A stretch of DNA of 45,239 nt from Candidatus Hydrogenedentota bacterium (lineage in GTDB: Bacteria; Hydrogenedentota; Hydrogenedentia; Hydrogenedentales; SLHB01), in contig BTWA01000045.1 of assembly GCA_045863295.1 (NCBI GenBank), positions 1 to 45,239 of the forward strand, read 5' to 3'. Below the pieces are notes generated by a model that saw only the letters and a list, made by a program, of their open reading frames with translations, made no database searches and was not told where the DNA came from. The position numbers and the translations under genes are program-made. Shown piece by piece: positions 3 through 10,920 of the stretch; the stretch's first letter is position 1, and the number at the start of each line of letters is the position of its first letter.

Positions 3-2315
3 TCACTAGTGCAATTGGCTCGCCAGTATCACTGCATCCCAGTAGCCGTCGTATTGGACATAGACGTGGACGTGTGCGTCGAGAGAAATCGAAGCCGCGA
101 GGATCGCCAGTTTGGCCCCCACGTGATTCGGCGCCAGCAGTCACAATTGCGTCGTTCTCTACGCGGCCTGCGCAAGGAAGGCCTGCGGCACGTATATATT
201 CTCAAAAATCCGGCCGAAGTGAACTCCGTGTCAATCGTACGGGAACCGCTATGGAACAATCGCAAGTTTGACTCCGGCCCGTTTGACATTATTGGAGATG
301 TGCACGGGTGTTTTGAAGAGTGCCGGGCTCTATTGAAGTCATTGGGGTACACAATAGGGGAGTCGGATCAAGAAACGTATGGCTATCGCGTGATTCCGCC
401 AGAAGGACGCAAGGCCGTATTCCTTGGGGATCTGGTAGATCGTGGTCCAGGCGTTGTCCCCGTGCTGCGTTTGGTGATGAGCATGGTTGAAAGCGGTACG
501 GCCCTGTGCGTCCCTGGCAATCATGACCTGAAGCTAGTCCGAAAATTGCGCGGCAAAAACGTAAAAGTGCAACACGGTCTCGCCGAATCCCTGGAGCAGT
601 TGGAAAGGGAAAGTCCCGAGTTTCGAGATCAAACGGTCTCATTTCTGGACGGACTTGTCAGTCATTACGTACTCGACGACGGGAAGCTCGTCGTCGCTCA
701 TGCAGGAATGAAGGAAGTCATGCAAGGCAGAGGTTCGGCCGCCGTACGCGATTTCGCCTTGTATGGCGAAACTACAGGCGAGACCGATGAATTCGGCTTG
801 CCTGTTCGTTATCCGTGGGCGCAAGACTACCGAGGACGTGCGACGGTCGTTTACGGCCATACCCCCGTGCCGGAAGCCGAGTGGCTCAATCGCACCATCA
901 ATATTGACACGGGTTGCGTATTTGGCGGAAAACTGACAGCACTTCGGTATCCTGAAATGGAATTGGTGACTATTCCCGCGGCGAAGGAGTATGCAGCGCC
1001 GGTACGTCCCTTGAGCAATACTATTAATAGAGAACTTGGCGAGGACCTGCTACGCATCTCTGACGTGAACGGTAAGCGAATCATCTCGACTCGGCTGCGC
1101 TCGAATATTACTTTACGCGAAGAAAACAGCGCCGCGGCATTGGAAGCTGTTAGCCGCTTCGCAGTCGATCCGCACTGGTTGATCTACCTTCCGCCCACGA
1201 TGTCGCCCACCCCTACCAGCGCACTAACCGATTACCTCGAATACCCAACAGAGGCTTTTTCGCACTATGCGAAGCACGGTGTAGGTCAAATCGTATGCCA
1301 GGAAAAGCACATGGGTTCGCGCGTAATTGCAATCGTCTGCCGGGAACCGGAAACTGCGCAGAAACGCTTTGGCGCGGCCGCGAGTTCACTAGGCGTTTGT
1401 TACACTCGCACCGGCCGCCCCTTCTTCAAGGACCCGGCATTGGAGCAAGCCTTGCTTGACCGAATTCGATGTGTGGCGAAGTTGTCTGGATTGTGGGACG
1501 AATTGGAAACGCGTTGGATGTGCTTGGACTGCGAACTAATGCCGTGGTCCGCGAAGGCACAGGACCTCATTAGAAGGCAGTATGCACCCGTGGGTGTTTC
1601 ATCTACAGTTGCATTGCACGCTGCTAAGGAGCAGTTGGCAAGAGCCCTTACAAGAGGCATCGTCATGGAAGAATCGCAGGCAAGCATTCCCGCCCGCATT
1701 TCCCAAAGCCTGTCGATGTGCGAAGCATACGGTGACGCATATCGGCGCTACTGTTGGCAGGTGAATAGTCTGCACGACCTCAAGTTGGCCCCATTTCACA
1801 TCATGGCTTCGGAAGGCCATGTGCACACGGATAAGGCGCACAGTTGGCATGTGGACATTGCACGGCGCATGGCAAATGCGGACTGTGATATGAATGGCCC
1901 GAAAGCTGTACTGAAAGAGACGCATTGCCGGTTTGTCGACATGACCAATCATGAACAGATCGCATCGGCTGTCGAGTGGTGGGAGACATTGACAGCGGCC
2001 GGTGGAGAGGGCATGGTCGTAAAGCCGGCCAACTTCGTAGTTACTGACGGTCGCGGATTGTTGCAACCTGCGCTAAAGTGTCGAGGCCGCGAATACCTGC
2101 GTATCATTTACGGACCAGAATACACTGCACCGGAAAATATGGAAAGGTTGCGCGCACGCTCTCTTGGAGCAAAACGTTCCCTGGCACTGCGCGAGTTCGC
2201 GCTCGGTGTCGAATCCCTGGAACGATTCGTGCAGTATGAACCGCTTTATAGGGTACACGAATGCGCATTTGCCGTTCTTGCCCTCGAAAGCGAGCCTGTG
2301 GACCCTCGCCTTTAG
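3..2315 (+). CDS. pnkp: Bacterial polynucleotide kinase-phosphatase-ligase (Pnkp), 5'-truncated by the window edge
   Basis: Tail of the kinase domain, then metallophosphoesterase motifs GDVHG, GDLVDRG, GNHD and HAG, then adenylyltransferase motifs EKHMGSR and EGMVVKP; C-terminus ALESEPVDPRL is typical of bacterial Pnkp. The frame is open to the window start. Confidence 0.93.
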   Translation, partial: SLVQLARQYHCIPVAVVLDIDVDVCVERNRSREDRQFGPHVIRRQQSQLRRSLRGLRKEGLRHVYILKNPAEVNSVSIVREPLWNNRKFDSGPFDIIGDVHGCFEECRALLKSLGYTIGESDQETYGYRVIPPEGRKAVFLGDLVDRGPGVVPVLRLVMSMVESGTALCVPGNHDLKLVRKLRGKNVKVQHGLAESLEQLERESPEFRDQTVSFLDGLVSHYVLDDGKLVVAHAGMKEVMQGRGSAAVRDFALYGETTGETDEFGLPVRYPWAQDYRGRATVVYGHTPVPEAEWLNRTINIDTGCVFGGKLTALRYPEMELVTIPAAKEYAAPVRPLSNTINRELGEDLLRISDVNGKRIISTRLRSNITLREENSAAALEAVSRFAVDPHWLIYLPPTMSPTPTSALTDYLEYPTEAFSHYAKHGVGQIVCQEKHMGSRVIAIVCREPETAQKRFGAAASSLGVCYTRTGRPFFKDPALEQALLDRIRCVAKLSGLWDELETRWMCLDCELMPWSAKAQDLIRRQYAPVGVSSTVALHAAKEQLARALTRGIVMEESQASIPARISQSLSMCEAYGDAYRRYCWQVNSLHDLKLAPFHIMASEGHVHTDKAHSWHVDIARRMANADCDMNGPKAVLKETHCRFVDMTNHEQIASAVEWWETLTAAGGEGMVVKPANFVVTDGRGLLQPALKCRGREYLRIIYGPEYTAPENMERLRARSLGAKRSLALREFALGVESLERFVQYEPLYRVHECAFAVLALESEPVDPRL

Positions 2316-4477
2316 GGCAATGCAAAGTCGAACGACTGGTCTTCACCTTCGGTAACTTTCAGCGTGTGAAACACCCGCGGCCGATCTTTCTCTCGCGCTT
2401 CGCCTTCCAGTTTCTCGTTGTTGTAGCAAAAACCCATTAACGTGTATTCGCCTGGTTCTAACCCTTTGAATTCATACACGCCTCTCTGGCGCATCCGTTC
2501 GGTCGAGGCAACCAGACGTTGCACATAGTCATGTAAAGGCAGCCCTTCTTCCACGGACGTAATTCGGCCAGGAAACAAGTGGACCCGGCCGCGGGCATAG
2601 TAATCAGGAAATGTAAACGTGCCGTGGATGCTTGCAGAGCCCGTCATCGAAATGGTCAATGACTGCATTTCACCGGCAGTCAAGGTTACCGTTCGGTTTG
2701 CGTGCCGGAAATAGGTCGTATCCGCCTGACCCGTCACGGCATTCACGTGAATTAAGTACTCGCCTGCACAGAGACCGGCCGCACGAAACCGCCCCGCTTC
2801 GTCTATGTCGGCGCTTTTGAGGATATCTTCTCGTCCATCGGGAAGAAGAACCGGCCGGCCATCCGTATGATAGAGATGAACGCTGCCGCCGGAAGGTGTT
2901 CCGTTTAGAGTGACCATTCCTTCAACTACCGCTTCGGGTGGCATCTGCAAATCGGCTTCGCGGGTTTGTCCGCTTGCCACGTTCTCGGTCAGAAGAGTCG
3001 CCGGATAGCCAGGCGCTGTCAGTTGAAGCGTTACCGTGCCCGGCGAGACATTTGCCAATTCGAACCGGCCATCCGCCGCCACCGTGACCTCCCCGTCTTC
3101 CGGGTTGGGTTCCGTAAGTGACTCAACGTTACGCACACGCATCTCGTAGCCACTGACGGCCGCGCCGGTTGCGCTGTTCAACACGCGCCCTACCAGCCTG
3201 CCTCGATCCAACTCCGATTCAACCACCACTTTAAGATTCGAGAGCGACTGCCCGGAAGCGACCTCGAATTCCGGATTACGTGATCGCTGATTTATCTTGC
3301 CCCACGGGTCATGAATGGAGAACGAGTACGTTCCAGGGGGAACGGCTTTGAACTGAAATCGTCCGTTGGTGTCCGTACGAGTCATACCCGGTACGATGGT
3401 TTCCACCGTAAAGGGCTTTGATTCAACTATATTCACGGCGTTAAGCGAAAAGTACCATTCGTGCATGGGTCGATCGCGTGTGTCCAGTACAATTCCCGAC
3501 AGCACCGCCTCTTTTTCCAACAGGAGATCGCCCACCGAAAAGACTTCGCCATCAAATTCGGCGGTCTGAACAACTTCCTGCAGACGAGGTGGCGCGTCGT
3601 CGATTCCCAATTCTGAAGAAATTCGCGCAAATTGCGTGTGGGCCGCTCGCGTTATCCCGACTAATTCCGGCGTAACCACCGGCAACGTCATGCGGCAACC
3701 CGCGTAGCCTTCCAACTCCGCTTTGATAACATAAGTCGACACGGGGAGTTGGCCGCCCAGATACTGCGCAGCGTCCCAAAACGACGCGGGACATAAGTCG
3801 TCAACGCGAAACCGGCCATTGTGATCCGTGACCGTCTTCACGGTTTCCAAGGACTGATTCCAATGCAATCCCGTCCCCGCAATGCCCCCGGAATCACCCG
3901 CAGGTACTTCCGCCGGATCGATGGAAATTGCCGCCCCAGGCAAACCGTTGTCGCTCGAATCCACAACGCGACCCGAAATGACAATCCCATCGAAGCGGAA
4001 TGTCAACGCAACATCGCCAGACTCTTTGCCGGGTCCCACTTCCACGCGCTTGCACTGCTCGTAAGCGTCTCGCTTCATCCGTACCGCGCCTTCGGGCGAC
4101 TGCGCGCGCACGGTGTACCATCCCGGAGGCAACCCCGCAAATTCATATCGGCCTCGGGCGTCACTAAGTGTCGTCATGGATACACCTGGACGGGCACTTT
4201 CCAGCGTCACGATAACGTCTTTCAACGCTCTTCCAGACTCCTGCATGAACTTGCGAAGAAGGCCTTGATAAAACGAATTCATCTCTTGTTCGGTCATCCC
4301 CATGGCCCCAACCACGTTCTCCAGTACGCCGGGCTGATAGGTCACCGTCGCGTCATATACGGTACCTTGAATAACGTCGTCGTGCTTATCCTCGCTCACG
4401 GCATATTTTGGTAATAACGTCAATATAGCTGCGAGCAGAATCCCCAGGACAACGGCCCTTGAACGTACACGTAACAT
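2312..4477 (-). CDS. Secreted protein with multiple carboxypeptidase-regulatory-like (transthyretin-like beta-sandwich) repeats
   Basis: Signal-like N-terminus (RSRAVVLGILLAAILTLLP). Repeated T/SDxxGRF/Y...L.PGxY units and I/LSGxVxD strands. ATG 4477 follows a GAAGGGGGA RBS-like sequence; the ORF track starts at 4540. Confidence 0.75.
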   Translation of the reverse strand: MLRVRSRAVVLGILLAAILTLLPKYAVSEDKHDDVIQGTVYDATVTYQPGVLENVVGAMGMTEQEMNSFYQGLLRKFMQESGRALKDVIVTLESARPGVSMTTLSDARGRYEFAGLPPGWYTVRAQSPEGAVRMKRDAYEQCKRVEVGPGKESGDVALTFRFDGIVISGRVVDSSDNGLPGAAISIDPAEVPAGDSGGIAGTGLHWNQSLETVKTVTDHNGRFRVDDLCPASFWDAAQYLGGQLPVSTYVIKAELEGYAGCRMTLPVVTPELVGITRAAHTQFARISSELGIDDAPPRLQEVVQTAEFDGEVFSVGDLLLEKEAVLSGIVLDTRDRPMHEWYFSLNAVNIVESKPFTVETIVPGMTRTDTNGRFQFKAVPPGTYSFSIHDPWGKINQRSRNPEFEVASGQSLSNLKVVVESELDRGRLVGRVLNSATGAAVSGYEMRVRNVESLTEPNPEDGEVTVAADGRFELANVSPGTVTLQLTAPGYPATLLTENVASGQTREADLQMPPEAVVEGMVTLNGTPSGGSVHLYHTDGRPVLLPDGREDILKSADIDEAGRFRAAGLCAGEYLIHVNAVTGQADTTYFRHANRTVTLTAGEMQSLTISMTGSASIHGTFTFPDYYARGRVHLFPGRITSVEEGLPLHDYVQRLVASTERMRQRGVYEFKGLEPGEYTLMGFCYNNEKLEGEAREKDRPRVFHTLKVTEGEDQSFDFALP

Positions 4478-4508
4478 ACTTCCCCCTTCGGCCGGATCGG
4501 CCTTTGAA

Positions 4509-6020
4509 TCAAGGCGTTTCGGGCGCTGATTCAATGCCATGCGCCTTCAGCGTGCGCACTGCGATGTGCCGCGCAATCCCCCAACTGCGCCAGTCTGTCA
4601 ACGAGTTTTTGCCCATCCAATGGGCAAACCAATCGGAGTATTCTCTGTCCTGAGCCAGCACCTCCGCGAGCACCGGAATGGAGTCCGCGCTCAATTGCAG
4701 ATTGTATTTGCTATCAAAAACCTTCCCGGCCTCCAGCCGCGCCAGATTATGCCGGACGATGAACGCGTCGGGGTTGGCTAGATTGAGCAAGAGGACAAAC
4801 ACAAATCCGGTCACTATCGATCCGGGAACAAACCGATCCCGCTTCTCCCGGTGCACCGTGGCGAAATACCAGACAAATAAGAGCGCCAGCCACACCATGA
4901 ATACCGTCGTATACAGACGCAGTTCCGTCAATCCATAGGCCTCGGTATAGAGAAACATGCGGTGCAATGCGCTGGCCATCAGCAAATAGATGAGCATGAT
5001 CCAGACAATCGACAGCCGCCGCTGTATGCGCCGCAGCGTGACACTTGCCTCGCGCATGAGCCAATCGGCCGTGAATAGCAGCGGCAGCGCCAAGGCAGAA
5101 GCCGCGACGAGTTGAAAGAATCCTTCCCGGGCGTATTCTGCGTAGGTCACCCCTGTCTTCGCCTGAATCAGCGCGTCGCCTCCGAGAAAGCGGGGGAGTT
5201 GTGTCAGTAGAAAAGAGGCAAACAGCAAGACGAGCGAGACCAGCGGTATCAATACGGTTGGCGCCTCGCTGCGAACGGCATCGGCGCGCCGGAGTTCTTC
5301 CTCCGGTATCACATGTCCGATCGCCACTGCGCGCAAATAGCCCCCAATCAACCACGTGCACAATGCAGTAACAAGTATGTGAGTAGCAAGGTCATGCCAG
5401 TCCAGGTCAAGCAGGTGCGTTACATAGTGGCTGAACAACGCGTCCGCCGTCATGAACAACCGGCCAAACACAAAAAGCAGCGGTACCGTAATGAGAAGTC
5501 CCAGACCGCTCGACCACCCCAGCCGGATCCACAGGTCCATGGACGGCCGGTTCTCGTGCTCGGTGATCCGGGAATACGATTCCGGGATATCTTTGGCCAA
5601 CAAAAGCGGCATTCCAGCGGCACCGCCTATCCCGGCTTCGACGGCTGCCACAAAGTGTTTGAGAAAGGAGGAGTCGCGCAAGCGTTGTGTGAAGGGCGAA
5701 ATAAGCAACTGGATGCAGGCAACCAAAATGGCGAGTACATTGAGTGCCTTCAAAACGTCCGAATCGCGCCATAGGATCAACAAGCCAAATCCGCCCACAG
5801 CCGCAACCCGGCTCCATCGATCCCACGCGATCGCGGGATGGCACTTCCCAAGCAGGAATACGAGGCAGCAGGCAAGCGTCAAGAACCAGATCGATGCATT
5901 GAGGCCCCATGGCCCCACACGCAACAACTGATCGGCCAGCGTGCCTAGCAGTAGCCCACAAGCAGCAACACGGATTGTGGCGGGCAAAGTCGGTTTCGAA
6001 GATGTGTCATGCTCGCTCAT
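4509..6020 (-). CDS. DUF4153/DUF4173-family polytopic membrane protein
   Basis: Many TM segments plus family motifs [13 protein letters not shown], RMxLYxxAYGLTx[20 protein letters not shown] and DWRSW. ATGA overlap with the upstream uppS-like gene. Confidence 0.82.
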
Positions 6021-6802
6021 GCCGGCTGCCCGCCCGCCTGAGCCAGTGTCACGCTGGAACCAGTCGTCAGTCCGCCGAATCGCCTCTGACGCCGGTGATA
6101 CGCTATCACCGCATCCGCAAGCGCAGCTTCGTCAAAGTCCGGCCACATCAGCGGCGTGAAGTACAACTCGGCGTACGCACATTCCCACAAAAGAAAGTCA
6201 CTCAGCCGCTGCTCGCCGCCGGTCCGTATCAGCAAGTCCACGTCATAACCGCGATGGGTGAGGGGTTCATCCTCGTACATCAAATCGGAAAACACACCCC
6301 GGGAGAGGGGCGGCGAGTCCGCGACGCGGCGAGCCGCCGCAAGAATCGCGTCTCGGGAGGAATAGTCCACCGCGATACGAAACGTAAGCCTTTGGCCATC
6401 TTGGGTAGCAGCTTCCGAACGCTCAATCGCGCGCAACAGTACCGGATTCAAGCGCGATCGTTTTCCAATCATTTGAAGTCGAACCCCTTGCTGAACACAG
6501 GTTCGAGTTTCTTTCTCAAGAAACAACTTCAATAATTTCATCAACGCGGATACTTCATCCTTGGGCCTCCGCCAGTTGTCGGAGGAAAAAGCGTAGACCG
6601 TCAGCATGGAGATGCCCAGTTCAGGGGCCGCTTCGACGATCGTGCGAACCGCTCGCACCCCCGCGCGATGCCCCTCGGTCCGGGGAAGCCCGCGCGCTTC
6701 GGCCCATCGTCCGTTACCGTCCATGATAATGGCGCAATGGAGGTCTCCAGCCATCTCAGGCCTTTCCAGAGAAGTACTTTGTAATGCAAAGTTGGCCGAC
6801 AT
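6017..6802 (-). CDS. uppS: cis-prenyltransferase (UppS/IspU-family paralog)
   Basis: [46 protein letters not shown] and C-terminal RRFGG. AAGGAG RBS 7 nt before ATG 6802. Confidence 0.92.
6772..6792. promoter_or_regulatory. Operator-like site, copy 2 (ACTTTG-N5-CAAAGT), inside the uppS 5' coding region
   Basis: AAGTACTTTGTAATGCAAAGT has perfect 6-bp dyad arms and is 17/21 identical to the site at 7817-7837. Confidence 0.7.
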
Positions 6803-6813
6803 AAAAAAACTCC

Positions 6814-7191
6814 TTACCCTTCGCGAACACGCTGTATTAACGACTCCATCTGGGACAAGTACCGCTCCAACGCCGACCGGCCCTTCGAGGTCAATTCGTA
6901 TTCGGTCTTGGGCGTCCGGTCTTCAAAGAACTTCTTGCACGCAATATACCCCGCGTCTTCCAACTTGCGCGCATGAGTGGACAAATTCCCGTCGCTCGTG
7001 CCCAATATCCGTTTCAGTTCGTTAAACGAAAGCGACGCGTTCACGGCCAACGCGCTGACAATCGCGAGCCGGTACTTCTCATAGATCACCCGATCAAAAT
7101 CAATGGTTTCCTGAACACCCGATGACACAACATCCAAGGGTGCGCCCTTGTCGGTCGGAGCAGGCTTTCGAGCAAAATTCTTATCCGCCAT
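6814..7191 (-). CDS. Winged helix-turn-helix transcriptional regulator (ArsR/MarR-like, HTH_34 type)
   Basis: RLAIVSALA...[46 protein letters not shown]. Start overlaps the stop of the upstream gene. Confidence 0.88.
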
Positions 7192-7783
7192 AACGCCTCG
7201 CAATGATCAACCCGAAGAGTATATGCAGGCCACCAAACCCAACCGCCATCCATAGGTCGTTCATCCACACGGGAGTGATAAACGCCACCACCCCCAGGCC
7301 CATGAAACAAAGGCCCATGACGGGCACAATCTTTATCGAATGGGCGCCGCCCGTTACAACCCCGGCACCGTACAATACAAGCCAAAGCCCGGGCAGCAAG
7401 TCGAAGTTCCCCAGCCGCCAAAGTACTAACGTCAGCAAAAATCCCGCAGCCAGTGTAGGCAACATGCCAAGGCCGAACCGGCGGCCTGGCCCGTCAAACA
7501 TGGACTCACTGGTACGCCGGCATTTCGCGAACATCGCACCGCCGCCCAGCGTCGCTGCTCCGCAGGCTGTGGCTAGCCAAATCGCCAGCCACGCGCCACG
7601 CGCTTCCACCAGCGAAGCACCCACGGTTCCCACCAACGCCACTACGCCCATAATGGCGGTGCCCCAACCAGGTACGGCGGTAAAGGCCTTGGACCGCTCC
7701 ATCGTTTGCCGAATGTACTGGAGATTGTCCATCGCCCGAAGATGGAGATGCACTGGCTCGTCGGTGTTGGGTGCCGGTTTCAT
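7181..7783 (-). CDS. Conserved hypothetical membrane protein (about 6 TM)
   Basis: N-terminal AMDNLQYIRQTMERS helix followed by hydrophobic segments, ending GFGGLHILFG. Translationally coupled to the wHTH gene. Confidence 0.8.
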   Translation of the reverse strand: MKPAPNTDEPVHLHLRAMDNLQYIRQTMERSKAFTAVPGWGTAIMGVVALVGTVGASLVEARGAWLAIWLATACGAATLGGGAMFAKCRRTSESMFDGPGRRFGLGMLPTLAAGFLLTLVLWRLGNFDLLPGLWLVLYGAGVVTGGAHSIKIVPVMGLCFMGLGVVAFITPVWMNDLWMAVGFGGLHILFGLIIARRYGG

Positions 7784-7789
7784 ACATCC

Positions 7790-7818
7790 ATCGTAACGAT
7801 TGGTCTTGATTGTGTCAA
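7790..7818 (-). promoter_or_regulatory. Sigma70-type promoter, probably producing a leaderless transcript
   Basis: Minus strand TTGACA (7818-7813), 17 nt, TACGAT (7795-7790), then only 6 nt to ATG 7783. Confidence 0.75.
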
Positions 7819-7837
7819 GTACTTTTCAATACAAAGC
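7817..7837. promoter_or_regulatory. Operator-like site, copy 1, overlapping the -35 element
   Basis: AAGTACTTTTCAATACAAAGC; imperfect dyad ACTTT-N7-AAAGC; 17/21 identical to 6772-6792. Confidence 0.7.
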
Positions 7838-7890
7838 GCATCGGGCTCCCCCAACCCCAACGTTCTTGGCGGAATATTTTTCCTAGCCCA

Positions 7891-7919
7891 TTGATTCAAG
7901 GGACTTTGCGTGATACACT
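7891..7919 (+). promoter_or_regulatory. Sigma70-type promoter for the TPR/flagellar regulatory operon
   Basis: TTGATT, 17 nt, TACACT with an extended-10 TG; divergent from the uppS cassette promoter. Confidence 0.5.
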
Positions 7920-8046
7920 ACCACCTATTGTATCGAGGCGATCTCGGTTTGCACATTATCTTGTAGGTGGGACGCGGCCACCCATAAGCGTTTGGGGTGG
8001 GCTCACCCCATACGAAGGCATGAAATAAATCGGAGAAGCCCGGTCT

Positions 8047-10920
8047 GTGACCCCCGAGGACCAAACCAAAAACTCAGACGCCGCAAGCGATGCCGAAGGT
8101 GTCTGGCCGATCGACGATTACGCTTCGCTCGGGCACGGTGATCTGGATGCCCTTCTGTCAAATCCGGAAGCGGAATCCGAGACGCCGGGCTCGGAACAGT
8201 TACTGCAAGACGACATCGATCGGCTGCTCGCCGCGCAAATGGGCCTCGAACATGCGGAAGCCGAAGCGGAAGCCGAAGTTCCAATCGTCGACCGCGGCGA
8301 ATTGGATGACACCCTCTCGCGTGCCCCTGACGACGAAACGCTGGCGGCGCACGGAATGGACGACACCCTCGTAACACCGCAACTGGGGTCCGCTCCATTC
8401 GATGACTCCGACGAAGCCAGCGAACTTGCCAAAATTGAGTCCCTCCTGCAAAACATCGACAAGGAAGACGCTACTGAAACCACGGCCGCTTCGGACGAGG
8501 CAGACATTGGCCTCGATCAATCCATGGTCGATGAACTGCTACGCCAAGCGCAGCATACCGATACCGCGCCGCCGGAACCCGACATCGATGAGATAGCGCT
8601 GACCGAATCGGTCGCACCCACACAACCCGTGCAGGCAGTCAAACCTCCGCCCGAGGTAATGGAAGTACCTTCATTTCCCCCGCAAATCGACGAAGCGTTG
8701 TTGGAGGATCTCGATAAGCCGCAAGAAGGATCGGAGGCGAAGCCCCCGCGCAAACGCTTGAATTTGCCGGTCGCATGGATTCAACGCAACGGAAATCGGG
8801 CCATAACGTCCTTGGCCGCTGGCCTCGTTGCAGCACTGGCCACCTACTCGCTGCTACGGGGGTTCTCTCCCGCAACCACTGTAGATACCGCGCCGCTGGC
8901 ACAGTCGGAAGATGTACTGGTCGCGGCTACAGTACAAACGGCCCGCGACCTGATGGAACAAGGCAGACCGAACGACGCCGCAACGGCGCTGTCTGATTTG
9001 ATCAGCGCGAACCCGGGTCCGCCTGCGCCCGACGCAGCCTATTGGCTTGCACGCGCACGCTACGAGGCGTTGCCGCAAAGTCCCGACTCAATTGCCGCTT
9101 CAGCCGCACAGAATGCAATCGACGATTTCACGTCGGTGGCGCCGGGCGATCCGAGGATTCCCGAATCGCTGCAATGGAAAGCGGACATTTACGAACGTAC
9201 CAACATCCCGCTCGCCGCACTGGATGTCTACAAAGGTCTGATTGCGAACTTTGCCAACCTGCCGGCACTGGATGAAATACTCCTGAAAGCGTCGAAGACC
9301 GCCTTGGCGGTTGACCGGACCCCCGAAGCATTCGATTTTCTTAGACGACTCATCGACGAATTCCCCGGCTCCAGTAGATTGCTCGAAGCGCGTCTCCTTC
9401 TGGGCGACGCCTATGCGAAAGCAGGGCATCCGGAGGAATCAACCACACTCTATAAGGAAATTGCCGCCAGCATCCCAAGAGACCGAACCAATCCTGATAC
9501 CGTTGCTTTACACAACCGGACTGTAGCCACCGCATACACCCGGCTTGCCCAACTGGCGTTCGACGCGGGAGACTTCGAGTCTGCAATTCAATTGCTCGAA
9601 AACCGGCTGCAAACGGCAACCACTGCGGACGGAAATGAACAAATCTATTTGTTACTCGCGAATTCCTACAAAATGGCCGGTAAACCCGCAGAAGCGGAAA
9701 TGAAATTGCGCGAGCTGCTGGACTTCTTTCCGGAAAATGATTTGACGCCCCAGGCCTATGCGATGCTTGCCGAAATACTCGCCTCTCAGGGCAAGCAGGA
9801 AGAGGCCATGCGCATCGCCAGCGAAGGTACGAACCGGTTTCCGAAACAAGGGAGTGTCCTGAAAACCAAAGCCACTTTGATGGAACAAACCGGTGACTTG
9901 CGCGGGGCGGCCAAGGCGCTCATTGCAGCCGACGAGTCGGGACAAAGCCGCTCGGCCTCGTTGCTCGCCGCGGGCAGATTGTATCGAAAAATGGGTGAAC
10001 TGACAGACGCTCAATACGTGTTGGAAGACTTGCTTGAAAACTATCCCAGCGCGCCCGAGTCGTTTGACGCCGCCGTCGAACTGGCAGGCGTGCTGCATGA
10101 GCGGGGCAAAGTCGGCTCGGCCATCGAAAGAATGACCGTACTCTTGGAATCGGCAGCGGGCACCCCGCGCGAGTTGCCTGTTGTGCTGGCCATGGCGCGT
10201 ACCTACGCTGATTTGCACATCACTGACAAGGCGGCGGAATTGTACAAGCAGGCTGCCGCGCTGACTTCGGAACCCGATATTCTGGCCGAATCCGCAATCG
10301 CACTGTTTCGCGCCAAGGTATGGAATGAAGGCATGGCGGTCGCCGAACGGGTAGACACGTCCGCGCTGGCTGCGGGACGCGCATACACATTCGAGATGGC
10401 GTACGGTCAGGCGCTCTTGCGGCTCGACGCCGATCGAGGGGTGCAATTGATGGAACTCGCCTATAACGGGTATCCGGATATGCGCGCGGAACCGGATGAA
10501 TTGACTCTGTTCCGTACGTACCTATCGTTGGACCGGACTGAAAGCGCGCAGAACTTGTTGGAGGGCGTAAAGACATTTGTTGAAAAGAATCCAATTGCGC
10601 TGCCTCGCCTTCACACCCTGTGCGCACTACTCGGCGATTACCATTACCGGAAAGGCAACTACAAAGAAGCGGCGGAGACGTTTGCCCTGGCGCAGGGTTC
10701 GGACGTTTACGCCAGCGAAACCACGTATTGGGCGCAATTTCAACGCGCGAACGCCCTGAACAAACTTGGCCAATGGGAAGAATGCCTCGCCTTGTATGAC
10801 AAAGTCGCCGCTGCCCAAACAGAATGGTCGGACGATGCCAAAGTGCGCGCCGATGTGGTTCGACTGGAACAACGCCTAAAGGCCGGCGGCCGTACGCCCG
10901 CGGCCAACGCAGTAGGATAA
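8047..10920 (+). CDS. Membrane-anchored tetratricopeptide-repeat protein with an acidic disordered N-terminus, probably flagellum-associated
   Basis: About 240 aa D/E/P-rich N-terminus, one TM (ITSLAAGLVAALATYSLL, about 8803-8856), then many TPR-like helical pairs (e.g. LIDEFPGS..LLEARLLLGDAYAKAG). GTG start follows GGAG. Confidence 0.8.
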   Translation: MTPEDQTKNSDAASDAEGVWPIDDYASLGHGDLDALLSNPEAESETPGSEQLLQDDIDRLLAAQMGLEHAEAEAEAEVPIVDRGELDDTLSRAPDDETLAAHGMDDTLVTPQLGSAPFDDSDEASELAKIESLLQNIDKEDATETTAASDEADIGLDQSMVDELLRQAQHTDTAPPEPDIDEIALTESVAPTQPVQAVKPPPEVMEVPSFPPQIDEALLEDLDKPQEGSEAKPPRKRLNLPVAWIQRNGNRAITSLAAGLVAALATYSLLRGFSPATTVDTAPLAQSEDVLVAATVQTARDLMEQGRPNDAATALSDLISANPGPPAPDAAYWLARARYEALPQSPDSIAASAAQNAIDDFTSVAPGDPRIPESLQWKADIYERTNIPLAALDVYKGLIANFANLPALDEILLKASKTALAVDRTPEAFDFLRRLIDEFPGSSRLLEARLLLGDAYAKAGHPEESTTLYKEIAASIPRDRTNPDTVALHNRTVATAYTRLAQLAFDAGDFESAIQLLENRLQTATTADGNEQIYLLLANSYKMAGKPAEAEMKLRELLDFFPENDLTPQAYAMLAEILASQGKQEEAMRIASEGTNRFPKQGSVLKTKATLMEQTGDLRGAAKALIAADESGQSRSASLLAAGRLYRKMGELTDAQYVLEDLLENYPSAPESFDAAVELAGVLHERGKVGSAIERMTVLLESAAGTPRELPVVLAMARTYADLHITDKAAELYKQAAALTSEPDILAESAIALFRAKVWNEGMAVAERVDTSALAAGRAYTFEMAYGQALLRLDADRGVQLMELAYNGYPDMRAEPDELTLFRTYLSLDRTESAQNLLEGVKTFVEKNPIALPRLHTLCALLGDYHYRKGNYKEAAETFALAQGSDVYASETTYWAQFQRANALNKLGQWEECLALYDKVAAAQTEWSDDAKVRADVVRLEQRLKAGGRTPAANAVG

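Follow-up and report, generated by a model that had tools for sequence, protein, structure and literature searches.

A conserved pair of a membrane protein and a winged-helix protein with interchangeable cargo, including an accessory cis-prenyltransferase, in Hydrogenedentota and other bacterial phyla

The supply of the polyprenyl-phosphate carrier limits the synthesis of the cell wall, of outer-membrane glycans and of capsules and, to our knowledge, how bacteria sense and adjust this supply is largely unknown. A contig of 45,239 nucleotides from a Candidatus Hydrogenedentota bacterium (BTWA01000045.1 of assembly GCA_045863295.1; "the window" hereafter means this whole stretch) raises the question in a concrete form. 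Four adjacent genes encode a membrane protein that we call TM200, a winged helix-turn-helix protein (wHTH), a second cis-prenyltransferase of the UppS type (UppS2) and a protein of the DUF4153 family, and were taken in an original prediction from sequence alone for a candidate envelope or lipid-carrier stress module. Is the module made of these four genes, and how might it be controlled? Comparison across genomes revealed that the conserved unit is the TM200-wHTH pair, and that the four-gene set is one of several versions with different cargo. The locus represents an uncharacterised and widespread regulatory cassette, one whose operator is sharply defined and to which a separate UppS clade is dedicated. 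Positions are numbered along the whole window, and the cassette genes all lie on the minus strand, within 4509-7783:

7181-7783, minus strand: TM200, a 200-amino-acid membrane protein with an N-terminal cytoplasmic helix and six transmembrane helices
6814-7191, minus strand: wHTH, 125 amino acids from the ATG at 7191, an HTH_34 winged-helix protein and presumed autorepressor
6017-6802, minus strand: UppS2, a 261-amino-acid accessory cis-prenyltransferase of the NF011412 clade
4509-6020, minus strand: DUF4153, a 503-amino-acid polytopic membrane protein

The tight coupling of the four genes that had been described earlier was recovered from the open reading frames and the sequence, with identical junctions: TM200 and wHTH overlap by 11 nt (7181-7191), wHTH and UppS2 are separated by an 11-nt gap (6803-6813), and UppS2 and DUF4153 share an ATGA overlap (6017-6020). 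The wHTH protein matches HTH_34 (PF13601; E-value 1.3e-26, 93 bits against a cut-off of 27) over residues 45-123 of a 129-amino-acid reading frame. UppS2 matches Prenyltransf (PF01255; 1.9e-75, 253.7 bits, cut-off 27) over profile positions 1-219, as well as TIGR00055 (245.7 bits, cut-off 109.55) and the NCBIfam model NF011412 (PRK14839), on which its 353 bits exceed the equivalog cut-off of 334. The product of the DUF4153 gene covers positions 2-372 of the 373 in PF13687 (5.9e-78, 263 bits, cut-off 27). TM200 was assigned to no Pfam (E-value of at most 0.01) or NCBIfam family.

A scan of one genome per species identified at least 587 TM200-wHTH loci, the best 80 of which were examined; these span Hydrogenedentota, Acidobacteriota, Gemmatimonadota, Chloroflexota and Planctomycetota. 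The wHTH gene follows TM200 directly in 80/80 loci, and in 73 of them the end of TM200 and the beginning of wHTH share 8 nt. The genes behind the pair are variable: UppS2 is part of the cargo in 43/80 loci (contig ends truncate two of these) and DUF4153 in 22/80, 15 with UppS2 and 7 without it. Other cargo, found in Pyrinomonadaceae among others, comprises DUF4352, a CreD-like protein, MacB-type permeases, UPF0047, a flavoprotein of the geranylgeranyl-reductase family (108 bits, under its cut-off), and a B12 radical-SAM protein that is most like HpnJ/HpnR (78 bits, far under the cut-off). Judged by these resemblances, the geranylgeranyl-reductase-like, HpnJ/HpnR-like, CreD and MacB-like cargo would likewise suggest a connection with isoprenoid lipids and the envelope. 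It is the constant adjacency of TM200 and wHTH, together with the varying cargo, that identifies the pair rather than the four genes as the conserved unit. The expectation of a conserved gene order therefore held for the pair, and the order is kept elsewhere (TM200, wHTH and UppS2 are collinear in 5/5 relatives that carry an extra UppS), but it failed for UppS2 and DUF4153, which are interchangeable. Within the family of the window organism, DUF4153 follows UppS2 in 1/5 other carriers. The flanking genes are different in every carrier genome.

The control region of the cassette has the following elements:

7790-7818, minus strand: promoter P1, with a -35 box TTGACA (7818-7813), a 17-nt spacer and a -10 box TACGAT (7795-7790)
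7816-7837, minus strand: operator O1, GCTTTGTATTGAAAAGTACTTG, a dyad CTTTG-N5-(C)AAAG followed by TACTT, whose 3' end overlaps the -35 box
6771-6792, minus strand: operator O2, ACTTTGCATTACAAAGTACTTC, a perfect dyad ACTTTG-N5-CAAAGT plus ACTT, over UppS2 codons 4-11
6803-6809, minus strand: a T7 run between the wHTH stop (6816-6814) and the UppS2 ATG, with an AAGGAG Shine-Dalgarno sequence just upstream at 6815-6810

P1 matches the sigma-70-type consensus at 10/12 positions and ranked first among five promoter-like sites in 2000-8300 (shuffled sequences had a mean of 2.8). The ATG of TM200 starts 6 nt past the -10 box. Likewise, the distance from the -10 box to the TM200 start codon is 5-8 nt in 51 of the 60 related regions in which a -10 box could be placed (out of 71 regions with a good O1). 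On account of this spacing, the TM200 mRNA is probably leaderless in most lineages, that of the window included. Upstream of TM200, a CTTTG-N5-CAAAGTACTTGACA dyad whose 3' flank enters the -35 hexamer was observed in nearly all loci. The operator consensus, CTTTG-N5-CAAAGTACTT, overlaps the -35 box at this place and is found again where the first cargo gene begins. At least 17 of its 19 specified bases are present in 65/85 related upstream regions, and O1 of the window has 18. With a 26-column weight matrix built from other loci (spanning 7812-7837 at O1), O1 was detected in 78/80 loci, and a scan of the whole 6.3-Mb genome gave scores above 14 bits for O1 (38 bits) and O2 (27 bits) only. Hence, of the single promoter with a dyad operator that had been proposed, the strong promoter and the dyad are both real, the dyad well in excess of chance, but the operators number two.

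An O2-type site lies 21-128 nt past the wHTH stop in 57 of the 78 evaluable loci, whichever cargo gene comes first, and the median distance between O1 and O2 is 1078 bp. In two loci (L044 and L056) UPF0047 has been inserted and the second operator sits before DUF4153, and another (L081) carries three sites in all, the third of them at UppS2. When UppS2 is the cargo, the dyad spacer often contains the start codon (ACTTTATGA..CAAAGT), and the Shine-Dalgarno sequence lies immediately upstream. A run of T5-T9 precedes the operator at 50 of the 57 O2 sites and ends exactly 8 nt short of it in 47 of these 50; in the window, 10 nt separate the T7 run from O2. Of the 50 loci, 28 have a hairpin (-8 kcal/mol or stronger) ahead of the T-run, and some (e.g., L083, L087, and L096) thereby have textbook intrinsic terminators. 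Informal inspection of the locus sequences by eye found no sigma-70 or sigma-54 promoter around O2. Since no promoter could be read there, the cargo would most simply be expressed by read-through from P1.

A strict operator pattern was also searched in five other genomes. The matches fell on the cassette contig, and at the cassette itself wherever coordinates could be checked, with the addition of one remote site; the reversed control pattern had 1 match. The remote site (positions 4994-5018 of L128, corresponding to G043:C10:103993-104017) is a perfect extended palindrome, AAGTACTTTATAATACAAAGTACTT, located far from the cassette of that genome, 2 nt before a gene for a 513-amino-acid radical-SAM/DUF4070 protein and behind a thioredoxin-like gene. 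This protein and the B12 radical-SAM cargo are alike at the level of Pfam kind (Radical_SAM). The scarcity of sites outside cassettes argues that the predicted operator defines a small local regulon. It is well supported that wHTH is an autorepressor at O1 and O2, with UppS2 and DUF4153 among its targets, where the binding and the repression themselves are predicted from the sites.

UppS2 had been regarded as an accessory copy, to be confirmed by a separate housekeeping uppS, and the genome (88 contigs amounting to 6.3 Mb, with a completeness of 96%) indeed has two Prenyltransf genes, the second of which lies elsewhere in the typical frr-uppS-cdsA context (rpsB-tsf-pyrH-frr-uppS-cdsA-prfB-lysS-lolCE-lolD). 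The two proteins are 39% identical. Of 40 related genomes from the same family or order, all but one have the housekeeping type and only five have an additional copy that scores over 300 bits on NF011412. Two Prenyltransf genes each were found in 4/4 tested genomes whose cassette carries UppS2, and a single one in a genome whose cassette is without it. In a tree of 75 UppS sequences (quick IQ-TREE search, the partial sequence of L071 being left out), the 44 cassette copies were split from the 31 others by one branch with a support of 100 in the Shimodaira-Hasegawa-like approximate likelihood ratio test (SH-aLRT). The cassette clade mixes phyla; for instance, a Hydrogenedentota copy pairs with a Chloroflexota copy (SH-aLRT 91). 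NF011412 was the best NCBIfam model for 22/22 cassette copies tested, 12 of them over the cut-off, and none of six housekeeping copies from the same phyla matched it at an E-value of at most 1e-75. Four positions divide the two clades almost perfectly, namely (in E. coli numbering) Asp144, Ser146, Asp203, and Glu208 in UppS2 versus Asn, Gly, Asn, and Gln; they flank the NYGG and RxSNFLLWQ motifs, beside the substrate-binding motifs. Two acidobacterial loci have a further UppS gene that precedes the cassette in the opposite orientation: one from Bryobacteraceae (L098, 4331-5191, minus strand), whose copy groups with the housekeeping clade in the tree, and one from Acidobacteria gp3 (L080, 1318-2120, minus strand).

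The active site of UppS2 is intact. It aligns with E. coli UPPS (PDB 1jp3) at 208 bits, free of gaps over the first ~145 residues, and with the short-chain Z-prenyl synthase 2vg1 at 93 bits. The residues that we take to act in catalysis or substrate binding in the E. coli enzyme are the Asp of DGNGRW, His43, Ser71/Asn74/Trp75/Arg77, Arg194/Glu198/Arg200/Ser202 and the C-terminal RxG. In a residue-by-residue alignment with 1jp3 every one of the corresponding motifs was present in UppS2 (DGNGRW, the His of GHxAG, FSSxNWxRP, RTGGExRxSxFLLW, and RFGG). Compared with E. coli UPPS, helix 3 also aligns without a gap, and the counterparts of A69 and L137, presumably the residues that limit chain length, are retained. 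From the intact motifs, these two residues and the scores of 208 versus 93 bits, UppS2 is most likely active as a cis-prenyltransferase, whose products would be of medium or long rather than short chain.

TM200 is encoded by the first gene of the pair. Relatives were numerous (7510 of 8000 scored candidates at an E-value of at most 0.001, or 2819 representatives after clustering at 50% identity), and all members seen are annotated as hypothetical. Mean column identity in their alignment (A1) is 67%; proteins from different phyla are 50-60% identical and share many invariant polar residues. The predicted model (predicted local distance difference test score, pLDDT, 85.8) has a helix at residues 11-33 followed by six long helices, and conservation peaks in that cytoplasmic N-terminal helix rather than at a membrane-embedded site. 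In the ESM Atlas the protein fell into its own unnamed clusters only, the nearest named model being TMEM175-like (TM score 0.52). A search for longer, fused forms returned three singleton long proteins and no recurrent or signalling-domain fusion. A sensor-protease of the BlaR1/MecR1 type does not fit either, as TM200 has seven helices, no soluble domain and no Pfam match. When Pfam was queried at an E-value of up to 10 with 20 TM200 relatives, seven gave weak matches to CoA_binding_3 (best 0.0058), a family that corresponds to the N-terminal membrane region of polyprenyl-phosphate sugar-phosphate transferases; we rejected kinship, as the likeness probably reflects a general resemblance of transmembrane segments.

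The wHTH proteins are 64% identical on average (alignment A2). Their N-terminal Met-Ala-Lys was considered as a docking motif and rejected, being forced by the 8-nt overlap with the Gly-Gly-stop of TM200. A predicted complex of TM200 and wHTH (score 0.02, mark 0.32) counts neither for nor against binding. The DUF4153 proteins (21 sequences in alignment A3, 37% mean identity) have invariant Asp, His, Arg, and Tyr residues, and the predicted model (pLDDT 76.8) is polytopic and all-helical. Foldseek on the PDB gave no better E-value than 0.2, and VIA-align in wide mode reached Z 9.0 with rhodopsins, over part of the whole-protein model; none of the solved structures was a convincing match. DUF4153 is the sole cargo in seven loci and therefore has no strict need for UppS2.

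Taken together, we give about an even chance to a reading in which the locus is a self-contained, horizontally spread regulatory cassette, with autorepression by wHTH at O1 and O2, TM200 as the input, and cargo expressed by read-through. The leaderless sigma-70-type P1 would drive TM200 and the translationally coupled wHTH. A wHTH dimer would bind CTTTG-N5-CAAAG(TACTT) at both operators: on O1, over the -35 box, it would repress its own synthesis, and on O2, 8-10 nt behind the T-run, it would either block polymerases that escape O1 or help to terminate them. That the repressor at O2 stalls polymerase on the U-tract is the least secure part of this model. TM200 would most likely be the membrane-embedded input and, in response to a membrane or lipid signal, would release wHTH from the DNA in the fashion of SdpI and SdpR. 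Judging from the cargo, we infer that envelope or lipid-carrier stress is the signal. The operon would then be read into the cargo, where UppS2 would raise or change the polyprenyl-diphosphate supply and DUF4153, at a guess from its context, would probably handle a polyprenyl-linked or other membrane lipid.

Several observations speak against this cassette reading. At the threshold used, O2 was undetected in 21 of the 78 evaluable loci. Only about half of the loci have the hairpin, and the window has none: its wHTH-UppS2 junction is without an intrinsic terminator, the 36 nt before the T7 run folding at -6.0 kcal/mol (z -0.5) and the terminator scan being blank, which leaves the termination idea unproven. 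In the closest named relative (L039, Hydrogenedentota AMX-MBFR-4) the pair has a degenerate O1 (10/19) and no cargo, and is followed by a convergent redoxin/cytochrome c gene. The grounds for supposing that TM200 acts on wHTH are constant adjacency and translational coupling. TM200 matches neither SdpI nor any other sensor family; 20 family members gave no SdpI match at an E-value of up to 10, a search in which very distant kinship could have escaped, as HMMER filters drop weak hits. Its fold search (VIA-align, wide) was led by a designed six-helix barrel at Z 8.8 and TMEM45A at Z 7.9, in the range of generic helical bundles. Given its high conservation, TM200 could equally well be an enzyme or a transporter, and wHTH might sense a signal by itself through its Cys and His residues.

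These last two points lead to the main alternative, namely that TM200 is a constant effector (a lipid enzyme or transporter) while wHTH is a one-component sensor of a soluble, redox or metal signal and the variable genes are accessories. Its strong conservation, with invariant D19, N20, R25, E29, K87, H187, and R197, would suit an effector, as would the lack of fusions to signalling domains among the TM200 proteins found. Self-sensing by wHTH would be consistent with a nearly invariant Cys85 and conserved His73 and His114, and with its nearest NCBIfam matches, the redox-responsive MarR-type RrpA/RrpB and ArsR metalloregulators, all far under their cut-offs. However, TM200 resembles no enzyme or transporter family, has no informative fold match and is best conserved in its cytoplasmic helix, and the pair is kept without cargo in L039, as would be expected of a sensor and its regulator, although an effector with its regulator fits that locus too. 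We regard this alternative as possible but doubtful. A broader proposal holds that the pair is an unrecognised cross-phylum switch for membrane-lipid homeostasis, in which TM200 would read the polyprenyl-phosphate pool or a physical membrane property and accordingly retain or free the repressor. The latter would gate isoprenoid-lipid genes (those for the UppS2 clade, DUF4153, a polyprenyl-reductase-like enzyme, a radical-SAM enzyme and CreD) both at the promoter and at a roadblock-coupled terminator, where polymerase would stall on the U-tract 8 nt before O2; in this full form it seems unlikely to us.

A special case of the cassette reading is mobile self-protection against compounds that trap the carrier, such as bacitracin-like agents or lipid II binders, with the drug or a shortage of carrier as the signal and the extra UppS2 restoring the carrier pool. 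Increased carrier synthesis protects against carrier-targeting drugs, and the patchy spread of UppS2 (5/40 relatives), the discordance of its tree with the phyla, the changing flanks and the MacB-type permeases among the alternative cargo would all agree with such a role. On the other hand, the geranylgeranyl-reductase-like, radical-SAM, UPF0047 and DUF4352 cargo is unconnected with such drugs, the loci examined had no antibiotic gene cluster beside them, and no mobile-element genes directly flank the cassette of the window, so that we consider drug protection improbable. Finally, an ordinary constitutive operon in which the shared motif is a promoter element without a repressor role could owe part of the motif's conservation to its abutting or overlapping the -35 box, but it is very hard to maintain, as the dyad recurs at O2 where no promoter is readable (57/78 loci), lies on the opposite side of the -35 box in L065, L092, L101, and L106, and stands remotely before the radical-SAM gene of G043, the first and last of which make a purely constitutive operon unlikely.

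The surroundings of the pair showed some recurrent associations. In six Gemmatimonadales loci (L047, L051, L052, L055, L066, and L095) mscL is the immediate upstream neighbour of TM200 and shares its orientation, an adjacency that may bear on a membrane-tension signal. In seven loci from Pyrinomonadaceae and other Acidobacteriota (L045, L050, L057, L062, L084, L097, and L099) the pair stands directly behind ileS-lspA-lgt, genes of lipoprotein maturation. A tyrosine recombinase (XerC/D-like, Phage_integrase) was observed a few kb downstream of the cassette in acidobacterial loci L041, L045, L049, L050, L070, L091, and L093. In the window itself, the cassette is followed by a gene that could belong to the same transcription unit:

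2312-4477, minus strand: possible fifth gene of the transcription unit, encoding a secreted protein with CarboxypepD_reg repeats; the start is probably M22 (4477)

If it starts at M22, this gene begins 31 nt past the DUF4153 stop, and the terminator scan gave no site between the two. Its product (721-742 amino acids) has SdrD-B-like repeats and a weak match to the anammox Kustd1514 S-layer family (30 bits); no counterpart was found behind the cassette in any other locus examined. On the other side, a divergent gene (8047-10920, plus strand) starts 263 bp from the TM200 start and encodes a protein of 957 amino acids; the N-terminal third of this protein is acidic and of low complexity, and a single membrane segment is predicted besides numerous TPR repeats with YbgF/BamD-like matches.

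The cassette offers a compact test system, in which a defined operator, a candidate membrane sensor family without a Pfam or NCBIfam model, and a distinct regulated UppS clade come together. The regulatory context shared by DUF4153, CreD-like and geranylgeranyl-reductase-like proteins narrows the search for their functions, and the operator enables regulons to be predicted in Acidobacteriota, Gemmatimonadota and other soil phyla that are difficult to work with. The original prediction knew of no functional characterisation of this arrangement, and our literature search on TM200-wHTH-UppS2-DUF4153 agreed, with DUF4153 papers judged by their titles and supplements outside the search. Searches on HTH_34/PF13601 found nothing related, those on UppS paralogs in the phyla named above nothing relevant, and those combining roadblock and terminator general reviews only.

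Parts of the cassette can nevertheless be set beside known systems. An operator inside a transcription unit could stop an elongating polymerase, as in the repressor roadblocks of the CodY, CcpA and PurR types; we know of no description of a fixed 8-nt spacing between T-run and operator as a regular design, and this geometry may indicate an undescribed coupling of repressor and termination. UppS2 belongs to the same fold family as E. coli UPPS and has all its catalytic motifs, but differs from it and from housekeeping UppS in general by its location outside frr-uppS-cdsA, its separate clade and its dedicated, predicted repressor. The PSII polysaccharide locus of Clostridioides difficile reportedly contains uppS2, an extra uppS copy beside the housekeeping one. 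In contrast to that gene, UppS2 of the window is not accompanied by glycosyltransferase or polymer genes, and what it constantly stands next to is a membrane protein and a repressor.

The closest parallel for the pair itself is SdpR-SdpI, to whose toxin context we know of no equivalent, in that no toxin partner of the TM200-wHTH cassette is known to us. In Bacillus subtilis, the six-helix immunity and signal protein SdpI sequesters SdpR, a wHTH autorepressor of the ArsR type, at the membrane upon a signal (PMC2910880). On the one hand, the cassette likewise combines a small wHTH protein and a six-helix membrane protein of ~200 amino acids in one operon and, as in systems of the SdpI/SdpR type, the regulator gene lies in its own operon with a dyad, the presumed binding site, over the -35 box of the sole promoter. 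On the other hand, the order is reversed, with the membrane protein gene first, the regulator is of the HTH_34 family and not a typical ArsR protein, and enzyme cargo follows behind a second operator. By analogy, the cassette may work like SdpRI without belonging to the SdpRI family.

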